Positions 103 to 23,273 of a stretch of DNA of 28,122 nt are shown here, one piece after another (position 1 is the first letter of the stretch; every line of letters begins with the position of its first letter). The position numbers and the translations under genes are program-made. The notes under the pieces are model-generated. The model saw only the letters and a program-made list of their open reading frames with translations. It did no database searches and was not told the DNA's origin. Where the stretch lies: positions 1 to 28,122 of the forward strand of contig CAXGMD010000045.1 in assembly GCA_964010765.1 (NCBI GenBank), given 5' to 3'. Source of the stretch: an uncultured bacterium (lineage in GTDB: Bacteria > SAR324 > NAC60-12).

Positions 103-221
103 GGGGTTAAATTGCGGTTGAAAGCAAAACTAAGTTGCTTGGGCTTTTTTTGGCAACGTGATTATCAATTGAGCGAGCGAAGCAAGCTACGGTCAATGGT
201 GAGTTGACCAAATGTGAATTC

Positions 222-1151
222 CTACATGTTGACAAGTTCACACATCTGTTCAGCTGTTTCCTGTAAGACCGGCCAATTTTCTGTATGTGAATTGTATGCG
301 ATATGATCCAAACCAATGTGAAGATAACAAGCGCTAAGTCGTTCTTCTAGATTTGTTGGTGTGTAACCAACTTGAATCCATCGATTTTCCAGGGCTTCTC
401 GAAGCAGGGGAACATCGAGATTTGTGTGCCAGGGCGCCCAGAATTCAAACCAGGCCAAATCGTAGAGGTGATCTCCCAAACGTCCACAGCCCCAATCAAA
501 GACTGCGTTGATGCGTCCTCCATCAACTAGGACATTACGATTCATCAAATCGCAGTGCAGCAAAGAACGAGGGACATCCGTTAAGGCAAAATTCTTCAAC
601 TTATCCAACCCTCGCTCAAAAACATCCCTTCCTGATGGAGAATTCTGTTCCAGTTTGCGACGCCAACCGTGAGTCCGTTGGGTCGGCTTGTCTTCAACAA
701 CAGTGAGCAGATGTTCCCTCCAAGTAGCACAATTAGCGGTGCCATCTTTGTCCCAATGTCCCACTCCAGCGGTCTCTTTGAGATCTGCAGTTCGCAAAGC
801 CTCCAGTACATTGACCAAATCCGGAATCACGCCCCGCCAAATCTCAGGGGCCACATTCTCAAGAGGAATCCCATGTGCTCTGCGAGAGATAGCAAAGTAG
901 CCATCCAGCGCTTCCCCCACCTCAAAAACCTCAGGAATGGGGAGCAGTGCTGAGCTAAATCTGGCCGCCCAGCGATCTTTTTGAAAATCTTCGATGTAAC
1001 GCCCAAAGCGGATTGCATATTCCTGGTCTCCAACAATGTATCCAAAACAACGAGACCAAGCGCCCTGGCCGATCATCGTAAGCTGTTGAGGCTCAGCTGA
1101 GAGATGGCTTCGTAGAAAATGATGGGCTTGATTTGGGGATACCGCTGACAT
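222..1151 (-). CDS. Aminoglycoside phosphotransferase (APH) family kinase, hygromycin-B kinase-like
   Basis: HCDLMNRN catalytic loop and DWG motif. N-lobe GQGAWSRCF..KDR..LPIPEV..ISRRAHG resembles APH(4)/Hph. Start moved from 1244 to ATG 1151 (MSAVSPNQ). Confidence 0.85.
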   Translation of the reverse strand: MSAVSPNQAHHFLRSHLSAEPQQLTMIGQGAWSRCFGYIVGDQEYAIRFGRYIEDFQKDRWAARFSSALLPIPEVFEVGEALDGYFAISRRAHGIPLENVAPEIWRGVIPDLVNVLEALRTADLKETAGVGHWDKDGTANCATWREHLLTVVEDKPTQRTHGWRRKLEQNSPSGRDVFERGLDKLKNFALTDVPRSLLHCDLMNRNVLVDGGRINAVFDWGCGRLGDHLYDLAWFEFWAPWHTNLDVPLLREALENRWIQVGYTPTNLEERLSACYLHIGLDHIAYNSHTENWPVLQETAEQMCELVNM

Positions 1152-1236
1152 CGATCTTGAAGTGAAGGCCGTGTTCCAAAAATCTGGGAGTTGAATCAAC
1201 CCTTTGAAACAACGTAGGAGCTTGGCAATTGTGAGT

Positions 1237-1655
1237 ACTGACAAGAAGTTTGTCTAGACCGACCCCTTAGATGGATGATCTAAGCAAATTAATCCAGTTC
1301 TTTGTCAGCGTCGGCAAGATGATGGGCAGGAGCCAGAGAATGGGAGAGGATGTGGGATCTGTTGGCACAGCCAGGAAAAGTGACTTTAAAACCTGGCTGT
1401 GCCTTCAGGTGAGAGGATTGGGCTAAGTCAAGACCCTCACCTGAGGTCGTTGTAGAACTATGCAAACAAAGATACGCCTCAGCACCCAGAGAGACTCGTT
1501 GTAAACCCTCTGGGCGTGAGAATCAGCAGAGAGTGAAACACTCCCCGTTTGAGCAAGATAGTCATGAAGATTTTCTCGGTTCCACTGCTGGGCCCCGAAT
1601 CTTCATAATATAGGCATCCTGTCCTGGAAAATCCGGACTCTCAACCTATGGTCGG
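1237..1655 (-). ncRNA. Candidate structured RNA (sRNA or long 5' leader) made of tandem hairpins
   Basis: Stems at 1610-1649, 1562-1608, 1527-1547, 1478-1520, 1405-1444, 1364-1403 (perfect 12 bp GGCACAGCCAGG/CCTGGCTGTGCC) and 1237-1309. Most stem mismatches become G-U pairs on the minus strand. No ORF of 60 aa or more lies inside it. Confidence 0.6.
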
Positions 1656-1662
1656 GTAAGCT

Positions 1663-1732
1663 AGTCTTTAGTTGATTATTTACCAGCAAAGTTTGAGAGC
1701 AGATTGAGCAGATTTAAATTAAGTTATTGATA
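1663..1732 (-). promoter_or_regulatory. Duplicated promoter-like element, copy L
   Basis: Reverse complement of 1679-1730 matches 4721-4772 at 42/52 nt ungapped. TATCAATAACTTA (1732-1720) fits the IHF consensus WATCAANNNNTTR. CTCAA at 1708-1704 and 1697-1693. TTGCTG-N15-AAGACT. Confidence 0.65.
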
Positions 1733-1851
1733 AATTTAATGAAAATTTCAAAGCGCGAAAAGCGTAATTCCAAAAAAAATCTTTTTTTATTTTATCGAAA
1801 AACCTATCGTGCCGATTTTAAAACCAACTGCTCTGCTCTCTATTGCTGACC

Positions 1852-4611
1852 ATGCTTTACAGATACTCATTCACAATTTGGATGCTGATCTTCGTTGGGA
1901 GTATTCTCTCAGGTGTCCATAGCTGGGCGAAGTCACCCGTTGAACTCAATGCCGGGTTTGAGTCAATCTATCTTCGCTCCGAATTGGAGTTCCTTGAAGA
2001 TCCCTCAGGATTGATATCATTGGAGCAGGTGCTGAGTGCTGAAAATCAGCAGCGCTTTCAACCCAACGGAGAAAAGGTTTTTAATCAAGGAAATACAAAC
2101 TCGGTCTATTGGTTGCGTTTCAGTGTTGCGAATCCCACCGCCAAATCCATTCCCCTAATCTTCAGTATTGAGAACATTTACGGATCCCTTGAACTCTATG
2201 GAATAAAGCCGACTGGAGAGAGTTCCTTGGTTTTCCAGAAATCAGCCCGACAGCTTGTCAAGGAGGGAGGAACAACCTGGGATCTGCAGAATACTTTGAT
2301 ATCGGCAAATGCTAATCAGCAAACAGAATACTACCTGCGTCTTGAACCCAACCTGATTCTACGAGCAGAAATTTCAATTTGGGAACCAGAGGCGCTTAGA
2401 GAGGATTTCACTGACAGATACAATCTACTAAGTCTTAGCTGGGGGGCGATTAGTTGTAACGCATTTTTCAGTCTTTTGTTCTTCTTTTTTCTTCGCGATA
2501 GAACCTACTTATTCTACGGCCTGCATCTACTTTTCTTCACCTTCCACCGCATGTTTACTAAGGGATGGTGGATCACTGACTTTCCAAGCCTCGATTGGTT
2601 CAACTGGGTACGCATCTATGTTGTGGGATTGTCAATCATCACCGTCTTACTTTTCTTCTCAAAAGTCCTAGATCTAAAAAAGAAACATCCAATTTCGCAC
2701 AAGATCATCAGATCTGCTGTGCTCTGCATTCTTGGAATCTCATTCCTAGTGGCTTGGTTCGAGCCCCATCAAGCATTTCGAGTCTTCATGACCCTCTCAG
2801 CCATTTCCACCCTGTTTCTGCTGATTCCTTACAGGGCTTGGAGAACTGGAGACAAGAACGCCCTCTTCTATTCCCTGGGCTGGGGACTCCTATGCGTATC
2901 TACTTTGATAGGAGCTCTAAATGCCATGGGATTTCTGGAGTTTCCAACTCCTGTCTACTTTGTAATGGAATTGGGTGCTTTTTCAGAGTCCCTCCTTTTC
3001 TCAATCGCATTGGCATTTCGAGTTCCTCAGAATGTTCGGGAACGCCAGAGAGCCCAAGAACAATTGTTGAAGCAAATGCAGGCGACGGAACGCTTCAAAA
3101 ATCAATTTCTGGCTAACACCTCTCACGAACTGAAAACACCCTTGCATGGCATCATGGGACTCGCAGAAAACCTGCTTACTGAAGCTCGTCAGCAAGGCAT
3201 GCAGCAGATGTCTGAAACGCTCCATTTGATGATCCAAAGCGGAAGGCGCTTGAATCTGCTCATCAATAATCTACTGGATCAGGCAGCACTAAGAGAGAAT
3301 CGATTAACAATGCATCCAGAGCTATGCTACCTGCAGCCGCTCGTGCGCTCTGCGGTGGACCTGGTCAACGTCCAATTTTCTACAAAAAAGCTCCGCGTCG
3401 AAAATCAGGTGTCTGAATTTGTCCTCCCAGTTCATGCGGACCCATCAAGGATTGAGCAGGTTCTGCTAAACCTCCTTTACAATGCATGTAAATTTACCTC
3501 GCAAGGACGAATTCAAATTCGATCCGCAACAGATGATGAGAGTGTACGAACCGAGATTCACGATTCAGGACCAGGTGTTCATGATGCTGATCGTAAAATG
3601 ATCTTCGAAGCCTTCGAACAACAAAACTCGGCTGTGACAGAAGGCATCGGCCTGGGCCTTTCAATCTCGAGAGAAATCATTGAGGAACATGGAGGTCAAA
3701 TCGGAGTAGAGCCTTCTCCTCTGGGCGGGGCGTGCTTCTGGTTCTCTCTGCCACTGGCTCAACCCACTCAAATCCCTTTGACGGAGGAGGGGCTCAATGA
3801 AAAAACCAGTGATGAAATTTCTTTTCCCTCCAGAGTCACATCAAATTTAAGGACTAGTGGGAGTATTTCCATTTTGATTGTCGATGATGATCCCGTAAAT
3901 CTGCACATCCTCACAGGGATGCTCACTGAAACTGACTGGACCTTCACCTGTTGCAGCTCTGGTCAGGAAGCCCTGGAGTTAATGAGTCAAACCTCAGACT
4001 TTGACTTAGTGTTACTGGACTTGATGATGGATGGAATGGACGGCATTGAGCTCTGCACAACTCTACGCCAACGATTTACCAAGGAGGATTTGCCGATTCT
4101 CTTTCTGACTGCACTGAGTCGGAGTGAGGAGTTGACCCAGGCTTTTGAAGCGGGTGCAAACGACTATCTGACAAAGCCAATTCAGAAAGCGGAATTGAAA
4201 GCCAGAATTTCTTCACAGCTCGAACTCGCGCAATTGCGCCATTCAAATCCACCGGCTGTTCATGGGAATAGTAAATCGATGAGAGATCTGCTCGCCCAAA
4301 CCATGCAGGTTGTAGTTCATTGCTGGGAACATTGCCAAGGGAAGGATCAAATTTCCTTGGCTCAGGAATCAAAACTTTGGGGGGCATACCTGGATAAGAC
4401 CAATGGGGTCTGGCGATCACCCGGAATTAGACAATACCTCTCCGCCTCCTCCATGCCTCAAAGGCCACGCTGGCGTAAAGTTGCTCAGACTGTTGAGTTT
4501 CTTCAAGCTCGGCTTCCAGAGGATGACTCCCACCAGCAAGAACTTTCAGAGTTACTTGCAGAAATCTACGAGAAGTCCCACCAGGAAGGCCCCAATTCAT
4601 CCGAGCCCTAA
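1852..4611 (+). CDS. 7TMR-DISMED2/7TM hybrid sensor histidine kinase (HisKA-HATPase-REC) with C-terminal ChiS-like DNA-binding domain
   Basis: Signal peptide; DISMED2-like LEFLEDPSG..YWLRF; about 7 hydrophobic helices; H-box FLANTSHELKTPL; N/G boxes NLLYNACKFT, DSGPG, GIGLGL; REC IVDDD..LLDLMM..LTA..TKP; tail LAQESKLWGAYLD..YL..MPQRPRWRKV. Start taken as ATG 1852. Confidence 0.92.
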   Translation: MLYRYSFTIWMLIFVGSILSGVHSWAKSPVELNAGFESIYLRSELEFLEDPSGLISLEQVLSAENQQRFQPNGEKVFNQGNTNSVYWLRFSVANPTAKSIPLIFSIENIYGSLELYGIKPTGESSLVFQKSARQLVKEGGTTWDLQNTLISANANQQTEYYLRLEPNLILRAEISIWEPEALREDFTDRYNLLSLSWGAISCNAFFSLLFFFFLRDRTYLFYGLHLLFFTFHRMFTKGWWITDFPSLDWFNWVRIYVVGLSIITVLLFFSKVLDLKKKHPISHKIIRSAVLCILGISFLVAWFEPHQAFRVFMTLSAISTLFLLIPYRAWRTGDKNALFYSLGWGLLCVSTLIGALNAMGFLEFPTPVYFVMELGAFSESLLFSIALAFRVPQNVRERQRAQEQLLKQMQATERFKNQFLANTSHELKTPLHGIMGLAENLLTEARQQGMQQMSETLHLMIQSGRRLNLLINNLLDQAALRENRLTMHPELCYLQPLVRSAVDLVNVQFSTKKLRVENQVSEFVLPVHADPSRIEQVLLNLLYNACKFTSQGRIQIRSATDDESVRTEIHDSGPGVHDADRKMIFEAFEQQNSAVTEGIGLGLSISREIIEEHGGQIGVEPSPLGGACFWFSLPLAQPTQIPLTEEGLNEKTSDEISFPSRVTSNLRTSGSISILIVDDDPVNLHILTGMLTETDWTFTCCSSGQEALELMSQTSDFDLVLLDLMMDGMDGIELCTTLRQRFTKEDLPILFLTALSRSEELTQAFEAGANDYLTKPIQKAELKARISSQLELAQLRHSNPPAVHGNSKSMRDLLAQTMQVVVHCWEHCQGKDQISLAQESKLWGAYLDKTNGVWRSPGIRQYLSASSMPQRPRWRKVAQTVEFLQARLPEDDSHQQELSELLAEIYEKSHQEGPNSSEP

Positions 4612-4718
4612 GGCCCCAAACTCCCACTAAATTCCCACTGTTTCCCCTATTCCTTCCAGTCTGCAAAGCAATTTTGAATCTGAATTTTTCCAATTGAGCT
4701 GATTAAATTTTCATATAT

Positions 4719-4788
4719 ATTCAATGACTTGTTCTAAATTTACTCAAAATGCTCTCAATCTTTGCTGGCAAAAATTTGGGGGCAAACT
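4719..4788 (+). promoter_or_regulatory. Duplicated promoter-like element, copy R
   Basis: 4721-4772 matches copy L at 42/52. ATTCAATGACTTG (4719-4731) is one mismatch from the IHF consensus. CTCAA at 4743 and 4754. TTGCTG-N15-CAAACT. Confidence 0.65.
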
Positions 4789-4843
4789 ACTGTCTCTCCC
4801 AGCGTTTCAATCCAAATCAATTGTTTTTCCTCGCAGTCACCCC

Positions 4844-5053
4844 ATGGTTGTTCAATACAAAAGAACCGATAATCAACATCAATTCAGTATCCAGGGGGAA
4901 GCAACTGAAAAGGAGGTAGAGGCACTTCTGCAACGATTCCAGGAGTTGCTTCATCCTGAACCGGACTTGCAGGTCAATCTTGTTTTGGATTGTTCAGACT
5001 ATTTAGGGAGACGTTCTGAAGACCCTGCTCCTCCCGAAGGCAGCGAATCCTGA
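4844..5053 (+). CDS. Small hypothetical protein (69 aa), weak resemblance to the N-terminal half of a STAS/SpoIIAA fold
   Basis: ATG 4844. FSIQGE..EVEALLQRFQELL..VNLVLDCSDY gives a beta-alpha-beta pattern. No clear SD. The upstream ATG at 4724 lies inside the promoter element. Confidence 0.45.
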   Translation: MVVQYKRTDNQHQFSIQGEATEKEVEALLQRFQELLHPEPDLQVNLVLDCSDYLGRRSEDPAPPEGSES

Positions 5054-5249
5054 CTTTGCTTCCGTTAGGGGAATCCAACGTCTCCTCCTAGTCCGATTTA
5101 CAAAGAATTCGGAACCAGATGGTTCCAGACGTAACAGGCGGGATGCCCATGAAATCATTGCCATATCGGGTTTCTCGCCACCACAAAATAGGATGCTTGC
5201 TCGTTGAGCAACAGTGGTGTGAGAGACCGTGACACCTGAACCTCTCTCA
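5039..5249 (+). ncRNA. Candidate structured RNA or leader of tandem hairpins
   Basis: Stems 5039-5063, 5078-5132 (inner TCCGA/TCGGA and GGAACC/GGTTCC), 5137-5179, 5179-5219 and 5220-5249. G-U pairs favour the plus strand. Confidence 0.45.
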
Positions 5250-5269
5250 GCATTGGAAAGGAGAGCACC

Positions 5270-5548
5270 ATGTCATTTTCTCAGCCTTTGAATCCAACCA
5301 AGAAATTCGCAACACACCCGATGTCCTCTCGACTTCGTGATTGGGAAGACCTTAAAGTTCATTTGATCTTCTCGGCAGGTCGCCTTTCGCCAGAGTTGTT
5401 TGATTTGTTGCTCCGATGGCTGGGTCGACGAAAGGAAGAGCCTCAAATCTGCTTGTTGTTCTGGCTCGCCACCTACAATCCAACTTTGTTTCATTTGACC
5501 CTGGCCGTTCGTCGTTTCTTACTCAGCCCTATGCAGTTGATCAAATAG
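5270..5548 (+). CDS. Hypothetical protein (92 aa)
   Basis: Strong SD AAGGAG 6 nt before the ATG; helical Leu/Trp-rich sequence; no family recognised. Confidence 0.6.
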   Translation: MSFSQPLNPTKKFATHPMSSRLRDWEDLKVHLIFSAGRLSPELFDLLLRWLGRRKEEPQICLLFWLATYNPTLFHLTLAVRRFLLSPMQLIK

Positions 5549-5638
5549 ACTCTGGAACATCACTGAACTCGTTCTGAGCAAGAAATACTATCAGCAGCAC
5601 CCCTCTCAATTAGACTTACTTTTTAAGCAGTGACAACC

Positions 5639-5881
5639 ATGATTCACTTTCCTAGGAGGGTTCTCCCCAAACAATCTCGTAAAGCTGAGAGCAAGCGGCC
5701 AACTCGTGAAGAGATTGAAGATCAAGTGGCCAAGTTCCTACAGCAAGGAGGAGTGATTCAGCAGCTTCATCCTGAAACAACCCAAAACACTGGGCTAGCA
5801 GAAATCGGTTCGCAAATTGATTTGAACATTCAAGGGTTGAACGAGGAAGCTCGCTTGAATCTGGATAATTTCAGCAAATAA
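5639..5881 (+). CDS. SutA-like small protein (putative RNA polymerase-binding domain)
   Basis: PTREEIEDQVAKFLQQGGVIQQL resembles the SutA core (EEFLARGGKVQEI type). Start is ATG 5639 or GTG 5630. Confidence 0.65.
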   Translation: MIHFPRRVLPKQSRKAESKRPTREEIEDQVAKFLQQGGVIQQLHPETTQNTGLAEIGSQIDLNIQGLNEEARLNLDNFSK

Positions 5882-5888
5882 TTGAACG

Positions 5889-6323
5889 GTGCAAAGATTG
5901 AATCCAAGAATATTACTCCTGGAAAATGCTAAAGAAAACGCTGCTCCATTCGTCAATAATTTAGAACAACTAGGCTGGCAGGTTGATTTTGTTCAGGATG
6001 GTATCGACGCTCTGGTAATTGGCCTAACAACGCATTTCGATACTGCATTGCTCGACCTCGACATCATGGATATCGATCCACTACGCTTGGTGCAGCATCT
6101 CCATCAGCATTCTGCATCCCTTCAAATCATTGGAATGAGCCACTTTACTAGTTCAGAGGATTTTCAAAGAGTGATGAAAGCAGGAGCGGCCCACCTGCTA
6201 GCAAAGCCACTTTCGCTTGGTCAACTTGTTCAGTTGTTACCTCCACGAATTCGAGTTGCTCCATCGCATCTTGCCACTTCCAAAACTACAGTCCCCAACT
6301 TTCAGGCAAACTCCTTTCGCTAA
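5889..6323 (+). CDS. Single-domain response regulator (REC), atypical acidic pocket
   Basis: ILLLEN..DGIDAL..FDTALLDLD..IIGMS..KAGAAHLLAKP; no output domain. Confidence 0.85.
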   Translation: MQRLNPRILLLENAKENAAPFVNNLEQLGWQVDFVQDGIDALVIGLTTHFDTALLDLDIMDIDPLRLVQHLHQHSASLQIIGMSHFTSSEDFQRVMKAGAAHLLAKPLSLGQLVQLLPPRIRVAPSHLATSKTTVPNFQANSFR

Positions 6324-6729
6324 CTCCTCCCGTAAGCTCATCGCTTTCATAAGTTTACTAAATCCAAAAACAAGCATTGCACTTGAATTACCACTGGAGG
6401 ATCGTCAATTTGTCATGCGGTTTACCGGGCGGTTTCTACTTTTTAAAGTATTTCGGTGCTTTACTCTTCTTAGCCTGGATTAAAAAAAGTGATAACTGGT
6501 CATACAGATTGAATGCATCAACGAGCTTGAACACCTATTCATCAGAAGACTTTAACTTTATCCAAAATATTAATATTATTAATTAAATTTAGAATCATCA
6601 ATCCTCTCTAAAATTTTCCTCCCCCCGCTCTCCTCTGAATTCAGCATCTCTTTTGATAAGACATTAAGTAGACGGTCGGTGCAACGGTCACTGACAAATT
6701 CGAAAATATGAACGCTAGAGGAGATTTCC

Positions 6730-6906
6730 ATGAATGCGCTGAACAACCTCTTTTTTGGATTCATCAAGGTCGGTATCCTCTTGGTCATCGTATCTCTGAT
6801 TGTGGCAGGAATCATGTCGGAAGGTACGGGCTTCGTACTGGGGATTGCGTGCGCTGGCTTGGTGAGTATGGTCTTTGTGGTAGCTCTGCTGGAACAGAAG
6901 TCCTGA
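6730..6906 (+). CDS. Small two-helix membrane protein (58 aa)
   Basis: SD GAGGAG then ATG 6730: MNALNNLFFGFIKVGILLVIVSLIVAGIMSEGTGFVLGIACAGLVSMVFVVALLEQKS. Below the ORF-track cutoff. Confidence 0.7.
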   Translation: MNALNNLFFGFIKVGILLVIVSLIVAGIMSEGTGFVLGIACAGLVSMVFVVALLEQKS

Positions 6907-8086: not shown

Positions 8087-9625
8087 TCAGGCATTCACAG
8101 TGGATTTCAGTCCATAGGTTCGCAGGCCCAAAAGACGAGTTTTGCCCCCAACCGTGCTGATGGAGAGGTCGTTACTTTCTGGATTGGAGAAAATATTATT
8201 GGTCATAGTGGTCCGACCGTTATCCGTAAAGACTTCAATCGAAATACTGTCCAAAAAAATCCTGACCGTTATCTGAGATTGGCTCGCTGATTCCAGCAGG
8301 CACGTGCGTTTGAGAGCAGAGACATTCCCTGAGCGAGTACGATCAAAGATCATCTCACCTTTCGCTAGGTCAAACTCCAGCTTTGTCTCCTGCTCAGCAG
8401 AACCACGCAGGTGAAATGCAATTCGCTGAGCATTGGTTTCTGACAAATCAAAGCTAGCAATGATTTCACAATGTACTCCGTCGCCAGCAGTGAATGAAAA
8501 AGGTTTTGATTCTTCAATCACGCAGGGAGCGTAGTACTGTTCTTGCTCTCGGAGTTGTTCCACTTCCTGGACTGGTTCACTTGCCAGCTTTCCATCCGGA
8601 CACAGACGGATTTGACGCGGTAGCGTGAGACTACCGCACCATCCCAACTGTTCTGTCTCATAGCTGCCACGGTACCAAGGCATCCAAGGCCATGCACCTA
8701 CCCAAGCCATAATCAGATCCCGACCCTTTTCATCACGAAAGTGCTGAGGAGCATAGAAGTCAAAACCCAAATCGACTGACCCCATTGTCTGCCACTGGAA
8801 ATTCCCACTCTGCTCGTCAAAATCACCGGTCAGGTAAATCACCTGGCGATCCGGCAGACCCATCGGCGAAAACATCAGCACCCATTTACCGTCCAAGGGG
8901 AAAAAATTGGGACACTCCAACATAGTCCCCAGTTCCCCACTGCTCTCAACAAGGTAATTGACAAATTCCCAATTCTTGAGGTTCGTGGAGCGGTGCAGGG
9001 AGACCTTGCCTTGATTCCTGATCTGGCCGCCCTTTGCTGCCAAGGAATTGCTTTTCCTGGTGGAGACCCCAGTAACCATGTACCAGGTGTTCCCCTGTTT
9101 CCAGACTTTGGGATCTCGAAAATCATTTGGATCGATTTCAGGGGGAGGTTCAGCAAGTACTGGATTTTGTTCTGATTTTGAGAAGGTTAAGCCATCAGCT
9201 GAACTCGCCATACACTGCACCTGTCTATCTTTCGTGCAACCTGTATAGAAGAGAATCAGTTCATCCTGATGTTCAATCGCGGATCCGGTGAAGATGCCCC
9301 CACCTTCCCAGTCATCATAATCCTCACTCGGTACCAGTGCTTCTAGCTGATGCTCCCAATGCATCAGATCAGCGCTGATGGCGTGTCCCCAGTGCATCGC
9401 ACCCCACTTCCCACTGAAGGGATTGTGTTGGTAAAACAGATGAAACTTGCCCTGAAACTGAATCAAGCCATGGGGATCATTCATCCAACCCACAGAAGGT
9501 TGAAAATGGTAGTGTTCTCTCCATGGATGCTGTGCAAATGCTGCTTTGTGTTGGGCGACATGCTCTTCTACCCGGTGAATTTTTTCTTGGTGCCGCTTCG
9601 CATCGAAACTCAAAACATGACTCAT
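8087..9625 (-). CDS. Glycoside hydrolase family 32 (beta-fructofuranosidase / sucrose-6-phosphate hydrolase-like)
   Basis: WMNDPHG, WGHAIS, FTGS, FRDPKV, LECP, FYAPQ and D.ISIEVF motifs. ATG 9625 overlaps the upstream stop (ATGA). No signal peptide. Confidence 0.93.
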   Translation of the reverse strand: MSHVLSFDAKRHQEKIHRVEEHVAQHKAAFAQHPWREHYHFQPSVGWMNDPHGLIQFQGKFHLFYQHNPFSGKWGAMHWGHAISADLMHWEHQLEALVPSEDYDDWEGGGIFTGSAIEHQDELILFYTGCTKDRQVQCMASSADGLTFSKSEQNPVLAEPPPEIDPNDFRDPKVWKQGNTWYMVTGVSTRKSNSLAAKGGQIRNQGKVSLHRSTNLKNWEFVNYLVESSGELGTMLECPNFFPLDGKWVLMFSPMGLPDRQVIYLTGDFDEQSGNFQWQTMGSVDLGFDFYAPQHFRDEKGRDLIMAWVGAWPWMPWYRGSYETEQLGWCGSLTLPRQIRLCPDGKLASEPVQEVEQLREQEQYYAPCVIEESKPFSFTAGDGVHCEIIASFDLSETNAQRIAFHLRGSAEQETKLEFDLAKGEMIFDRTRSGNVSALKRTCLLESASQSQITVRIFLDSISIEVFTDNGRTTMTNNIFSNPESNDLSISTVGGKTRLLGLRTYGLKSTVNA

Positions 9626-10416
9626 TGATAAGTGAAACTCAGTGAAGCCCAATAGCTTTTCCAAACAGCCCCGTTCTTCTGTTCGACTTCCAGCATTTGC
9701 ACGGCATTCAGCAGGAAAAAGCCAGAGGCCGTCAGTGGGATTTGAGCTCGTCCTTCAGTATCCGTTCTGACCGTGGTCTCTTCTATGTCACCACCTCGAT
9801 GAAAGATACGAATCTGAATGTCGGGGAGTGGCTCCCCTTGCCAGAACAGCCGTACCGGAAGGCTATTTTTCTGAGTCACATAAGGGTTCTCCTCGGCCAG
9901 TAATTCCAACGGCATTCCCACCAGCTGATCCTGTCCTTCGGCGGTACCACCCACCGCCAAAGCCTTGGCACATCTTACATAGTCTTCCCGAAAACCGAAC
10001 TCGGGCAGACCACGCTCCTGGTGGCGTTCCAACACACCTGTCAGACCTTCGTATTCGATAAATCGCTCAAACTGTTCCTTTGAGCGGTAACGCATATCAT
10101 CTGTGCTCGACAAGTAATTGACGACTTGTAATCCTGGAGTACGGACCTTCATCGCAAAAGCAGGCATGTCGCCCTGCATTCCCTTAACAGGACGCATCCC
10201 TTCTGCATCTCGGATTTGAAACTCTTCAAACCAAGATTTGATGTAAGGTTGTTGATTGCCCTTGAGATGCTGACCGACTCTTAGTTTAATCTTCAAGGTA
10301 TCACCCACAGATACCGATGGATTTTCTGGTTCCATCCAAAACTCATGAGCTTGGAGGGAATTGGACACGATCAAGGCTGCGAATAAGCCCAAGCACACTC
10401 GTTGGAGAATTTTCAT
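9622..10416 (-). CDS. DUF4198 family periplasmic protein (Ni/Co uptake-associated)
   Basis: Signal peptide then mature N-terminus HEFWMEP; GMPLEL..NPY, RTDTEGRA, SYWASLSF. SD GAGGA before ATG 10416. Confidence 0.85.
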   Translation of the reverse strand: MKILQRVCLGLFAALIVSNSLQAHEFWMEPENPSVSVGDTLKIKLRVGQHLKGNQQPYIKSWFEEFQIRDAEGMRPVKGMQGDMPAFAMKVRTPGLQVVNYLSSTDDMRYRSKEQFERFIEYEGLTGVLERHQERGLPEFGFREDYVRCAKALAVGGTAEGQDQLVGMPLELLAEENPYVTQKNSLPVRLFWQGEPLPDIQIRIFHRGGDIEETTVRTDTEGRAQIPLTASGFFLLNAVQMLEVEQKNGAVWKSYWASLSFTYQ

Positions 10417-11642: not shown

Positions 11643-12377
11643 TTAGATCTGACGCCGTGGCAACTTTGAAAATCGAAACTCTGGAGCTGACAAGCGTTCG
11701 GGCGGTCCAATCCAGGCATAGGCCAATAAGCAAGGTTCACGAATACCTACCGTGATCCGATGATGCTGAGTGGAACGATTCAAGATCAAAGACCCTGGGG
11801 CATAGACAGCATTATCATTCTCTGACCAAGCCCCCGCCAAGGAGATATAGCTCTCCTCAATCTCATCATGACGATGCTGGGGATAGGTAGTCCCCGGCGC
11901 AAAGAGCACCAAGCCCAGTATCAATCCTTCCGCTTGAATCGGACCCTGTGGTCCCATCATCTCGCAATAGGCGTAGCGCTTGGCAAGTTCCCTTGGAACT
12001 TTCTGATAGCCGTACTCCCAGGTGAGTTGGCTCTCCACCCGATACAACACTCGTGACAAATGGGCCAAGGGACCCGAATCTGCCAGATCAAGCGCCCGGC
12101 CCCAGTGTGCATTGACCGGCTTGTTCTCCGGTTGTCTTGGAGTGTAGTAAGGGTTGCTCTTCGTGATTTTGCTGATGGCCTCTCGCACACGCCGCTGATG
12201 GCTCCTGATGATGGCACTACCTCCCGCAGAGCCTAAGCGATAGACCTGGTCAATTTCCTGGAAAACGTACTTCCAGTCGGGTACGTCATTTAATCGAGTT
12301 TCCATCTGGCCCATAGCAGGGGTAAGAGGATTGACTGCTGGCAATTTTGTCGCCGAGGCCAGCTCTTCTTGGCTCAA
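11643..12377 (-). CDS. dddL: Dimethylsulfoniopropionate lyase DddL (cupin)
   Basis: GSAGGS..RRVRE, LTWEYGY, YAYCE..GPQGP, LFAPGTTYPQHRHDEIEESYISLAGAWSEN, APGSLILN..HRIT, EPCLLAYAW follow DddL as I recall it along the full length. Confidence 0.88.
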   Translation of the reverse strand: MSQEELASATKLPAVNPLTPAMGQMETRLNDVPDWKYVFQEIDQVYRLGSAGGSAIIRSHQRRVREAISKITKSNPYYTPRQPENKPVNAHWGRALDLADSGPLAHLSRVLYRVESQLTWEYGYQKVPRELAKRYAYCEMMGPQGPIQAEGLILGLVLFAPGTTYPQHRHDEIEESYISLAGAWSENDNAVYAPGSLILNRSTQHHRITVGIREPCLLAYAWIGPPERLSAPEFRFSKLPRRQI

Positions 12378-20339: not shown

Positions 20340-23273
20340 ATGAAAGCTCTTCTCATCATCTTCACAAGTCTGATGCTCTTCGGCTGTATCGAAGAAGGAA
20401 CCATCGTCTACGATCAAGACTACCCAGAAGCTCCTGAGAATATCGGGGGATCCGGCTCAGGAGCAGATCGAGCTCCAGGTGATGGTGCTGGAAGTGCCAG
20501 CGGAACCTCTGATGGCTCTGGATCAACCGGAGGCTCCTCAGATGGAAGTGGGGTAGATGGTGGAGCTACGAGTACCGGATCGGATGGCAGTACTACCGGT
20601 GGTGATGGTAGTGGTGATGGCTCTACTGGTGGTTCCACAGGCGGAAGCACAAGCGGTGGAACTGGCACAGATGGTGGTGATACCAGCACTGGTTCTTCTG
20701 ACGGATCCGGAAGCACAGGTGGTTCAACAGATGGTGGCTCAGGTTCCGGTGACACAGGTGGGGATACTGGAAGTAGCTCAACTGGTGGGGATACCAGCAC
20801 TGGTTCCGATGGTGGGGAAACAGGTAATGGTTCTTCTGACGGATCCGGAAGCACAGGTGGTTCAACAGATGGTGGCTCAGGTGACGGCTCAACGGGAGGC
20901 TCTGCAGACGGAAGCGGTAGTGATGGCTCTGGATCAACTGGAAGTACAGGTGGTACTGACGGGGGAACAACTGATGGTTCCGGTTCCGGATCAACCGGAG
21001 GTTCCTCAGGTGGTACAACTGACGGTGCCGGAAGCACAGGCGGTGGAACTGGCACAGATGGTGGAGACGGTGCTGGTACTGACGGTGGCGATAGCGGTAG
21101 TGGTACTGGTGATGGTTCAGGTACAGGCGGAGGTGATGGAGCAGGTGACGGTGGCGACGGCACGGACGGTGGCACCGAGCTTGATGCCCCGACTGTAACA
21201 CTTACTGCCAAAGAGCAGAAGATTGTTGTTACCTGGAGCCCAGTAGATAACGCAACGAGCTACAATCTAACTTGGGTTTCATCAGATGGAACTGAGAACA
21301 TTATTGACGTGTCCGCTCAGCAGGTAGCCGATGGTGCTAATCCAATCGTGTTTGCTCATGCTCCATTGGTAGCAGGACAGAACTATACCTACACTGTAAC
21401 GGCAGTGGCTGCTGATGGTACAGAAGCAGTCGGCACTCCACTTACTGAATCAGCACTGGCACTTGGTTGTACTCCTTCCACATACGAACCTGAAGGATTA
21501 GTTGCTTACTATTCCTTTGAAGGTGACTTGAGCGACTCTGCTGGCTCATATGACCTAACTCCAACCGGTGATTCGATTGCTTATTCAAATGGTTGTGTAA
21601 ATGGTAAAGCAGGTCACTTTGATGGTGATGGAGGTTACGCTTACAACTTGGACTTCAACGACGAGAATGTTGATGAAGTTGCTGACAACACTTGGAGCAT
21701 CAGTGTATGGGCAAACGCAGATGAGGACATGAATAAGTTTGCTTCAATTGTTTCAACTACTGACAGACAAGAAGATGATTGGGACAACGGTTTCCAGTTG
21801 GATGTAAACAGTGACAGAGAGCTACGCTGGTTCTTCAGCAAGACTGGTAATGATCCTAACCAACTGAACAGTCGTGTAAAGATGACATTGGGTGAGTGGT
21901 ATCATGTTACTGTTACATACGACAACGGTGTAGGACGATTGTATGTAAACGGCGTAGAGCGCAAGAATGCTACAGGCTTGGACTTGGGCTTCAACAGACT
22001 GAAGTTAGGTATTAACAGGTTTGGGCAAGAGCCATGGAAAGGTTTTGTAGATGAGTTGATGGTGTTTGGTGAGACACTGAGCGCTGATGAGGTTATGAGC
22101 ATTTACAACAACACACTACCAGGCACACCTCAGAACGCCACAGCTACTAACTGGGTTGGTGATACTGTAGTAGTTGGCTGGGAGGCTGTAGAAGGTATTA
22201 ATGAGTATAATGTTTACTACTCAACTGGTGGAACTGTTAATGAAAACTCACCATATATTACTGTAACAGGTGGAACTGTTGTTAACTTTGACAATCTTAC
22301 ACAAGGACAAGACTATACATATGCAGTAGCAGGTGTAAGTCCACTTGGTGTAGGCGAACTTTCAGTTCCTACTACAATTACTGTTGATGGTATGTTGTTA
22401 GCTGACGAGCCAGCTTTTGAGACAACTGTTGATAATACTATTAACGGCACTGCTCGTAAGGCTGAAGCAATTGAGTTCAGTCCTGATGGATCCAAAATGT
22501 ACTTGATTATTGCCACTTGGACTGGGGAAGGTAGTTTTGTACAATATGATTTAGCTACTACTTGGGATCCAAGAACAGCTACACGAACAGAACGATTCCA
22601 ATTCTGTAACGCTTCACTCAATTTTGGGAATACTTGTTTCACCAATAACCTCAAATTTATCGCTGATGGCAGAAAGTTGATTGGATTGAATGATGCCAGT
22701 TACAACGGTATTCAGAGTAGTATTAGAGTATGGGACTTGGATGTCGCATATGATATTAGTACTCTTAATTCAGAAGTAGATTATACTCTTGAAACTTATG
22801 ATAATACTAGAGTTACACATCCAGCTGCGTTTGCATTCAATCCAGAAGGCACAAGGATGATTGTTGGTGGATATACAAGAATGGGCGACATTGGAATTAG
22901 TCAAGAGTGGGAATTAGCTGGTTCATATGATTTCTCAACAATGACTAAACTTGCTGAAACAGACGGAAGGTACTTTCGTCAGGGTACTTCAGCAGACACT
23001 CATCAAGAAATTATTTGGAAGGCTGACGGAACTAAGTTCATTATACTACAAGACGAGGGCTCCGTTCGTACTTATAATGTGAGTGTACCATTTGAGCTTT
23101 CATCATCAGTTTATGGTACTGAATCAGCATTAACATTAGATAAGGAGGTAATTAAGTTTCCTTACCAAAGCGTAAGAGCAATTCATTTCAGTCCAGCACA
23201 AGACAGACTGTATTATGTTAAAGATGAAGCAGATGGTACTGTAACAATTGGTTCAATGCCATTCAGCTGGTAA
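20340..23273 (+). CDS. Large surface lipoprotein: Gly/Ser/Thr/Asp linker, FN3, LamG-like, FN3, beta-propeller-like C-terminus
   Basis: Lipobox LFGC (Cys16); about 245-aa G/S/T/D tract; VTWSPVDNATSYNL and YTYAVAGV (FN3); LVAYYSFEG..WYHVTVTYD..LYVNG..VDELMVF (LamG); FSPDGSKMY, FNPEGTRMI and WKADGTKFI blades. SD GAGGA. Confidence 0.9.
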   Translation: MKALLIIFTSLMLFGCIEEGTIVYDQDYPEAPENIGGSGSGADRAPGDGAGSASGTSDGSGSTGGSSDGSGVDGGATSTGSDGSTTGGDGSGDGSTGGSTGGSTSGGTGTDGGDTSTGSSDGSGSTGGSTDGGSGSGDTGGDTGSSSTGGDTSTGSDGGETGNGSSDGSGSTGGSTDGGSGDGSTGGSADGSGSDGSGSTGSTGGTDGGTTDGSGSGSTGGSSGGTTDGAGSTGGGTGTDGGDGAGTDGGDSGSGTGDGSGTGGGDGAGDGGDGTDGGTELDAPTVTLTAKEQKIVVTWSPVDNATSYNLTWVSSDGTENIIDVSAQQVADGANPIVFAHAPLVAGQNYTYTVTAVAADGTEAVGTPLTESALALGCTPSTYEPEGLVAYYSFEGDLSDSAGSYDLTPTGDSIAYSNGCVNGKAGHFDGDGGYAYNLDFNDENVDEVADNTWSISVWANADEDMNKFASIVSTTDRQEDDWDNGFQLDVNSDRELRWFFSKTGNDPNQLNSRVKMTLGEWYHVTVTYDNGVGRLYVNGVERKNATGLDLGFNRLKLGINRFGQEPWKGFVDELMVFGETLSADEVMSIYNNTLPGTPQNATATNWVGDTVVVGWEAVEGINEYNVYYSTGGTVNENSPYITVTGGTVVNFDNLTQGQDYTYAVAGVSPLGVGELSVPTTITVDGMLLADEPAFETTVDNTINGTARKAEAIEFSPDGSKMYLIIATWTGEGSFVQYDLATTWDPRTATRTERFQFCNASLNFGNTCFTNNLKFIADGRKLIGLNDASYNGIQSSIRVWDLDVAYDISTLNSEVDYTLETYDNTRVTHPAAFAFNPEGTRMIVGGYTRMGDIGISQEWELAGSYDFSTMTKLAETDGRYFRQGTSADTHQEIIWKADGTKFIILQDEGSVRTYNVSVPFELSSSVYGTESALTLDKEVIKFPYQSVRAIHFSPAQDRLYYVKDEADGTVTIGSMPFSW
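20690..20882 (+). repeat. Exact 55-bp in-frame direct repeat in the Gly-rich linker
   Basis: TGGTTCTTCTGACGGATCCGGAAGCACAGGTGGTTCAACAGATGGTGGCTCAGGT at 20690-20744 and 20828-20882 (138-bp offset). Confidence 0.9.

Follow-up and report, generated by a model that had tools for sequence, protein, structure and literature searches.

A ChiS-type sensor kinase of SAR324 flanked by inverted, repeat-containing candidate promoter modules

SAR324 is an abundant, mostly uncultured marine lineage, and the stretch of DNA analysed here (the window: 28,122 nucleotides, contig CAXGMD010000045.1, or C45, of the 3.86-Mb SAR324 genome GCA_964010765.1) encodes a hybrid sensor kinase with a ChiS-type DNA-binding tail whose gene lies between two inverted copies of a short element. 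The ChiS-type kinase has been known since 2021; what appears to be new, judging from the comparison of related loci, is that private repeat-containing promoter modules flank the kinase gene and that the type of their repeat unit follows the recognition helix of the tail. As a whole, the locus is on balance probably best explained as a membrane-anchored one-component activator kinase with its own local promoters. A periplasmic signal would alter the state of the kinase, and ChiS-type tails would bind tandem 9-bp direct repeats beside the -35 region; integration host factor (IHF), bound just upstream, would bend the DNA and so bring a further repeat pair, at a distance of about one IHF turn, to face the same oligomer in the membrane. 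The module may have been duplicated in inverted orientation in this genus, with the right copy driving an operon (open reading frame ORF-A, a structured intercistronic element, ORF-B, a SutA-like protein and a receiver domain, REC) and the left copy driving a genus-specific non-coding transcript of about 300 nt that may run on into an APH-family gene. We infer the binding, the involvement of IHF and activation rather than repression from computed features of the locus, namely the fold of the tail, the repeats, their geometry and their co-occurrence with the kinase. Genomes, loci and RNA runs used for comparison are labelled G, L and X, respectively.

The kinase gene occupies 1852-4611 of the plus strand (919 amino acids from the ATG at 1852, the frame being open also from a TTG at 1843), and Pfam assigns to its product, in order, 7TMR-DISMED2, 7TM, HisKA, HATPase_c and REC, behind which comes a ChiS-family DNA-binding domain. 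The LadS-type domain set (7TMR-DISMED2, 7TM, histidine kinase and REC, with their His and Asp sites) is complete, and the phosphorylatable His and Asp motifs are intact. The helix-sheet-helix domain at the end of the protein (4273-4578, plus strand) is recognised by sequence and by fold: the last 120 residues match the ChiS DNA-binding domain of PDB entry 7KPO with E 1.3e-10 by sequence and 3e-33 by profile, and an AlphaFold model of the tail (59 homologous tails) has a pLDDT of 96.6 and superposes on 7KPO with a TM-score of 0.86 and an rmsd of 1.7 A. The modelled tail places a two-strand sheet (E39-41 and E46-48) between helices H26-33 and H50-54, as a ChiS-family domain requires, and the sequence-only reading of the protein as a 7TM-DISM hybrid kinase with a ChiS-like tail is thereby borne out. 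Further, the changed codons of the tail core relative to the distant homolog L004 are 13 synonymous and 1 non-synonymous, and the segment is nearly invariant in the genus; by this codon comparison the core is under strong purifying selection. The protein type was already known, because the data set of Klancher 2021 (PMC8092284), in the portion available, includes 7TMR-DISM fusions and three SAR324 proteins. That paper is also the only one that joined ChiS, 7TMR-DISM and SAR324 DNA binding in the literature searched, a scope that leaves most subscription journals outside its coverage. Of 88 genomes from the phylum, 44 contain ChiS-domain matches, as many as 16 in a single genome, and one such gene was found in the genome of the window.

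The inverted arms lie at 1679-1730 and 4721-4772 (52 nt, 81% identity; about 70 nt at 80% when extended, E 4e-9), and no third copy was found in the 3.86-Mb genome, where the next ungapped match reaches 33 of 52; the bracketing of the kinase by two 52-bp copies that the sequence-only reading described is thus confirmed. Read outward, each copy consists of an IHF-like site, 6 bases, pair B (two 9-bp direct repeats), then, after 9 bases, a weak -35 and, 17 bases beyond it, a -10 of the pattern TAnnnT, with a further pair A about 20 bases upstream of the IHF-like site, clear in the left copy and degenerate in the right. The left candidate operator module (1696-1769, minus strand) comprises pair B at 1696-1713, the IHF-like site at 1720-1730 and pair A at 1752-1769, and the right one (4683-4755, plus strand) a degenerate pair A ending at 4700, the IHF-like site at 4721-4731 and pair B at 4738-4755; they are the first and second genome matches of a position weight matrix (28.9 and 27.2 bits) of which both are training members. 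The IHF-like site matches the consensus WATCAR-N4-TTR fully in the left copy and with one mismatch in the right, and across the genus its fixed positions are kept while the middle four vary. The genome encodes IHF alpha- and beta-like proteins as best matches that score under the NCBIfam cut-offs.

Beyond the repeats, a sigma-70 promoter is predicted on each side. On the left (1658-1686, minus strand) the -35 lies at 1681-1686 and the -10 at 1658-1663, with a 17-nt spacer, a start near 1651 and the same geometry as on the right, where the predicted promoter (4765-4793, plus strand) has its -35 at 4765-4770, its -10 at 4788-4793 and a start near 4800. In both copies the alignment across the genus places the -10 hexamer 32 nt past the repeat pair, and on the right the TAnnnT pattern is kept in homologs while the spacer diverges; the comparison thus supports the earlier suggestion that the elements are outward promoters. 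A generic promoter and terminator scan gave no excess over shuffles and missed both predicted promoters. A sigma-54 or sigma-28 reading of the element was rejected by eye on its unsuited spacing. A single repeat pair of the same unit type (type one, below) also lies between two genes whose translations identify them as lptB-like and rpoN-like (G000:C248:1191-1240, locus L232), some 16 bases away from a clean sigma-54 -24/-12 motif pointing away from rpoN. It is matched in 7 genomes of the genus (orthologs L233-L238), in a region that is 92-96% conserved anyway; it is possibly a third target or a site of rpoN autoregulation.

Inverted orientation and an IHF-like site are also features of some recombination sites, and the repeats might be read as bounding a mobile element or an invertible segment. 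Gene order and orientation are constant wherever readable, however: both flanks are present in 14 of the 25 loci examined, and the kinase is flipped in none of them. The arms are just 81% alike, no recombinase or transposase is found among the 25 window proteins scanned, and relatives have the module singly or as direct copies. A mobile or invertible segment is thereby largely refuted and is extremely improbable. Positions 200-6400 are matched in long pieces, at 77-96% identity, in 7 of the 8 other genomes of the genus, and the long matches are absent from G001 (94% complete) and from the 32 genomes outside the genus, in which matches are short or lacking.

The broader and more useful result is probably that the module, with a repeat that follows the recognition helix, extends across a clade of kinases. 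The comparison set consisted of 76 regions around matches, chosen among 150 listed of 169, with 78 domain-bearing genes including that of the window. When a matrix built from this genus only is run over 977,474 positions in the 75 other loci, its top two matches are the two sites of L137 (20.4 bits each, the next scoring 15.6), whose kinase has a recognition segment nearly identical to that of the window kinase; sites at L135, L136 and contig C43 rank 5, 6 and 11, mixed with unrelated matches. A scan agnostic to sequence, defined by an IHF-like core and two pairs of any repeated 7-mer, finds a module at 7 of the 21 genes of the 'WG' clade and at none of the 57 other ChiS-domain genes, always downstream and on the same strand, with a background of 2 matches in the 3.86-Mb genome of the window. 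At L135, L136, L137 and C43 a -10-like hexamer is seen by eye 32-34 bases past pair B. The type of repeat unit tracks the residues that open the recognition helix: type one accompanies kinases with Pro at the R1074 position (the window, L135, L136 and L137), type two those with Thr-Arg (C43 minus strand and L151) and type three those with Arg-Gly (L142 and L206), and G009 has both type one and type two, each at a kinase of its own. Across whole genomes, the type-one pattern is matched 3 times in G009 and 4 times in G060, all seven matches lying just downstream of such kinases, and elsewhere 0 times in G020, 3 in G001 and 5 in the window's genome; the type-two pattern occurs once in G009 and once in G051, next to its own kinase each time, and is absent from 3 other genomes. 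Since the patterns were drawn from these same sites, only their rarity elsewhere counts as evidence.

Several side observations belong to these loci. At L137 two direct-orientation modules (5993-6110 and 6584-6702) stand before and after a homolog of ORF-A, and the pair is an independent duplication. Direct repeats of 63 and 31 bp flank two other ChiS-domain kinases at L141 and L144; they are not the IHF module and are possibly small repeats or another operator type. That ChiS-domain genes are in general bracketed by repeats was rejected: of 65 testable genes, just 7 outscored every one of 40 shuffles, mostly marginally, and the inverted twin layout is consequently seen in this genus only. Outside this genus (L135, L137, L142 and L133), what comes after the module or ORF-A is predicted lipoproteins or surface proteins rich in repeats, which suggests surface structures as the usual output.

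Given that the kinase is the only ChiS-domain gene found in the genome and that the module is confined to the neighbours of this kinase clade, the kinase is the likely binder, and we consider it quite probable, from this comparative evidence, that it binds the flanking elements directly. The single ChiS-domain gene found and the only two modules of the genome adjoin each other. Of the earlier proposal that the kinase binds both elements and switches on two RNA arms, the binding part therefore stands as likely, while the twin RNA outputs do not. Certain results weigh against the account of the locus as a kinase with its own promoters. The five binding residues of ChiS, R1068, R1074, K1078, R1090 and R1092, align with K, P, Q, R and R in the tail, so that two of the five are changed (R1074 to P and K1078 to Q), with an Arg adjoining the Gln; in the accessible text of PMC8092284, K1078Q in ChiS abolished DNA binding, and conservation of these residues is reported as variable across the family. 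The modules of the window themselves fail the agnostic scan, because pair A is degenerate, and 14 of the 21 members of the WG clade have no module; at several of these the flanking sequence is short, but at L138 the flanks are full and the helix is similar. The type-one pattern was built from the G009 and G060 sites, which leaves only its absence elsewhere as informative. A quick, unfinished tree unites the type-one kinases in one group (SH-aLRT 93), which reduces the co-variation to about two or three independent changes. Finally, a distant sub-clade (L004, L005, L008 and L067) has a degraded left -10 or repeat pair.

Some of the same results could be turned toward a different regulator, whether a soluble response regulator or a global factor, that reads the modules while the kinase is co-inherited or acts by phosphotransfer, for example to the lone REC. 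The altered residues of the tail, the intact His and Asp motifs of the kinase and the single repeat pair that 7 genomes of the genus have ahead of rpoN would all suit such a regulator, and shared descent of kinase and promoter alone could yield the co-variation. Nevertheless, two unit types at two kinases of one genome misfit a global factor, no other DNA-binding gene is common to the loci whose ORFs were listed, the REC is often deleted where the modules are retained, and the tail core evolves under the strong purifying selection described above. Reading by another regulator is accordingly rather unlikely.

On the right arm the first element downstream of the module is ORF-A (4844-5053, plus strand), a conserved 69-residue protein. 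It is intact and in frame in the aligned homologs, it is annotated as a gene in public data, and its frame has 15 synonymous and 13 non-synonymous codon changes, versus 3 and 24-25 in the other plus frames. No folding signal was found within it (plus-strand z -1.9 to +0.6 in 16 distinct sequences). There are 12 ORF-A matches in 10 of the 88 genomes, of which 11 share a contig with a ChiS-domain match, within about 2.4 kb downstream of it, the twelfth lying at a contig break. A STAS lead comes from two weak signals (1 of 18 members matches PF01740 with E 0.0019, and an Atlas row at 0.90), no fold match was found in the PDB, and the model is of low confidence (pTM 0.42); ORF-A is possibly a truncated STAS/SpoIIAA-like fold. 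A complete STAS domain was ruled out, the protein being too short and having no full profile or fold match.

Behind ORF-A lies a structured intercistronic region (5054-5269, plus strand), with a hairpin at 5111-5126, an 18-bp stem at 5166-5232 and a possible alternative pairing at 5137-5179, the supported structure being about 300-430 nt downstream of the predicted right start. In the computed stem 97.6% of cells are paired, 8 pairs vary on one side and 2 on both (compensatory changes), and 0 of 500 shuffles match it, in a test that related sequences lacking structure can pass in 5-25% of trials. By our reading the stem appears in the minimum-energy fold of 14 of 16 sequences, and the other two use the nearly invariant upstream partner (5137-5179), a pairing in which no covariation was found. 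We infer a two-state cis element controlling ORF-B (5270-5548, plus strand), a protein of 92 residues that contains an internal repeat of about 30 residues, was found in no other genus and lacks any Atlas or family match. A covariance model of the right element matched 7 of 45 genomes, all of this genus and all training-like.

Farther along the right arm are a small protein of 80 residues with the RNA-polymerase-binding motif SutA-RBD (5639-5881, plus strand; PF20661, 40 bits, above the cut-off) and the lone REC (5889-6323, plus strand), which is deleted in many relatives. The family scan thus upholds both assignments, together with that of the APH protein on the left arm. The REC is present in 8 and not found in 11 of 19 related loci with the SutA-like gene, and is consequently dispensable; its deletion (5880-6279) is visible also in RNA contigs of X1 and X15, which shows that natural populations contain both forms. 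The SutA-like gene was rejected as a fixed partner of the kinase, for it occurs in 62 of 88 genomes, mostly on other contigs. At L146 (G001:C24), in a genome that lacks the ortholog, a different pair of ChiS-domain kinases is followed by a SutA-like gene, an ORF-B-like gene and two REC genes, and from this gene set the distal right arm has an independent link to ChiS-domain kinases. Beyond the arm, a 58-residue hydrophobic ORF (6730-6906, plus strand) lies in a segment that is 89-93% conserved among otherwise 80% relatives, and nearby genes include those for a GH32 fructan/sucrose hydrolase (8087-9664), a DMSP lyase cupin (11643-12377) and a LamG/fn3 protein (20340-23273).

On the left arm the module points into a non-coding tract (1305-1650, minus strand), a candidate RNA, some 300-350 nt long, for which five hairpins are predicted and whose conserved core lies at 1356-1610, followed downstream by the APH-family phosphotransferase (309 residues, 222-1151, minus strand; PF01636, E 7e-18), whose best NCBIfam match, APH(4)-Ia (NF000107), scores 118 bits, far under the cut-off of 725. 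The minus-strand hairpin tract of the sequence-only reading is upheld by a folding z of -4.4 for 1305-1650, against a background in which 5 of the 73 intergenic windows sampled have a value of -4 or lower and 1 has -6 or lower. In 15 distinct homologs the minus-strand z for 1335-1620 ranges from -1.4 to -7.0, and in 13 of them it lies under the plus-strand value. A coding frame or pseudogene was rejected, there being no synonymous excess in six frames, as was a diverged 6S RNA, RNase P RNA or tmRNA, each of which is present elsewhere in the genome. A nearly invariant block at 1285-1310 (minus strand), just 3' of the tract, could be part of an APH promoter or an alternative pairing partner for 1452-1465.

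Of the 18 metatranscriptome runs that contain 33-61% of the locus words, the contigs of four (X1, X3, X13 and X15) were mapped; such contigs give no strand, ends or expression level, and the strand and ends of the proposed RNAs accordingly stay predictions. X1 has a contig over 1025-1601, which extends from 1601 into the APH gene, and no cover over 1603-1869, while in X15 a contig covers at least 1502-1527 and ends at 1634 in adapter sequence. The left-tract contigs of X1 and X15 have depths of 115 and 678, the highest shown for their runs, a measure that is not usable to rank expression. This pattern is compatible with a transcript start near 1650. Counting on the other side, X13 has no contig over the left tract, the thin cover of X3 includes the left promoter and may be DNA, and contigs of X1 and X3 span the right module, as read-through or DNA would.

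Whether the left tract has a function of its own is a separate matter, since the left copy might be a recent, partly decaying duplicate and the tract a long APH leader or a relic. The tract covaries weakly (2 of 67 pairs; 12-15 of 500 shuffles; conservation index 0.48), its substitutions show no strand bias (16 G-U, 19 A-C, 24 other and 3 Watson-Crick), and in the distant sub-clade with the degraded left promoter folding is weak (z -1.4 to -3.0 in L004, L005, L008 and L067); all of this detracts from a functional RNA, and the X1 contig that runs from 1601 into APH would suit a leader. Speaking against this, however, are a core that is 78% identical to L004 versus 63-66% at fourfold sites and 47-64% in adjacent non-coding DNA, and the presence of the tract in 7 of the 7 genomes, the window's own among them, that carry this part of the locus. 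A decaying duplicate is therefore unlikely, and the left copy is taken here as a putative promoter for a genus-specific transcript.

In another reading, both promoters would switch on independent structured small RNAs, Rsm-like or otherwise. Conserved, structure-prone non-coding DNA on both arms and a CsrA encoded in the genome would suit such a pair, RNA contigs that begin at 5006 (X15) and 5015 (X13) cover the right stem, and a processed right-arm RNA may still exist. Yet ORF-A, which sits between the right promoter and the stem, is the partner that conservation carries into other genera, and neither RNA was found outside this genus. Neither tract gave an Rfam match at the gathering score, relaxed E values bringing only chance-level matches, and GGA is scarce in predicted loops. 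Twin small RNAs are thus very unlikely. The earlier statement that each copy points into a hairpin tract holds on the left and gives way on the right, where ORF-A comes first and the supported stem lies farther downstream; likewise, the 'two structured RNAs' are not supported as twin outputs, for the arms have no shared sequence, and the right promoter would feed a protein gene with the hairpin in an intercistronic position.

These results have implications for how this protein family reads DNA, which the accessible text of PMC8092284 states as an open question for the helix-sheet-helix domain; in the portions of the literature covered, binding sites are described for only one ChiS-family protein. 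That the repeats of related sensors change with the tail suggests a testable rule of DNA recognition, and because three candidate operator types match three helix variants, a recognition code is directly testable in vitro. The locus and its paralogs further suggest a way for a protein held in the membrane to contact two distant sites via an IHF bend, and the locus adds a small protein family tied to ChiS-domain kinases and two unannotated RNA elements. More broadly, and only tentatively, SAR324 might have expanded its ChiS-domain kinases into orthogonal, self-contained switches, each of them reading, under a residue-to-base helix code, a private repeat operator that lies beside its own gene and is folded by IHF into a U-turn. 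The one in this genus would fire both ways, giving an abundant new regulatory RNA on one side and, on the other, an operon that combines an RNA switch with a protein that binds RNA polymerase. No earlier description of the arrangement was found in the literature searched, nor any publication there on a SAR324 small RNA.

Among known systems, Vibrio cholerae ChiS is alike in being a hybrid kinase with a C-terminal helix-sheet-helix domain and two sites in phase with the -35 region, on DNA reported as intrinsically bent (PMC8092284; bioRxiv 2020.01.10.902320, both as far as their available text extends). ChiS binds two 13-bp sites, for which phasing with the -35 is required (bioRxiv 2020.01.10.902320, available portion), and by our own reading the published chb probe (PMC8092284 Fig. 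S1) has a 5-mer at a 9-bp period in two pairs 30 bp apart, the mutations shown there affecting only the first unit of each pair. In the SAR324 modules, by contrast, the pairs are 56-68 bp apart with an IHF-like site between them, the recognition helix is divergent, the targets flank the kinase gene itself, and the sensor is a 7TMR-DISM with no PAS domain, whereas three 7TMDISM headings in the 2021 data set, as available, include PAS. The claim that ChiS acts with IHF found no backing, IHF being absent from the accessible parts of PMC11856585, bioRxiv 2020.01.10.902320 and bioRxiv 2026.01.21.700895, with one unrelated mention in bioRxiv 141812. At PtfoR the partner is a second membrane regulator, TfoS, for which ChiS recruits the DNA, phasing being unneeded (PMC11856585; bioRxiv 2026.01.21.700895, in part). 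ChiS and TfoS at PtfoR resemble the SAR324 locus as membrane-tethered regulation of a promoter that yields a small RNA, but no TfoR-like sequence was detected at the SAR324 locus by Rfam. The analogy with LadS and the Rsm RNAs likewise fails on the RNA side, because by our reading just one of the five predicted left loops carries GGA; Rsm RNAs have a GGA-loop pattern, and the flanking tracts lack it. What LadS and RetS do share with the SAR324 protein is the 7TMR-DISMED2 hybrid kinase architecture; LadS passes its phosphate to GacS, with no direct action on GacA (PMC7695008, available portion), whereas the SAR324 kinase carries a DNA-binding domain of its own.

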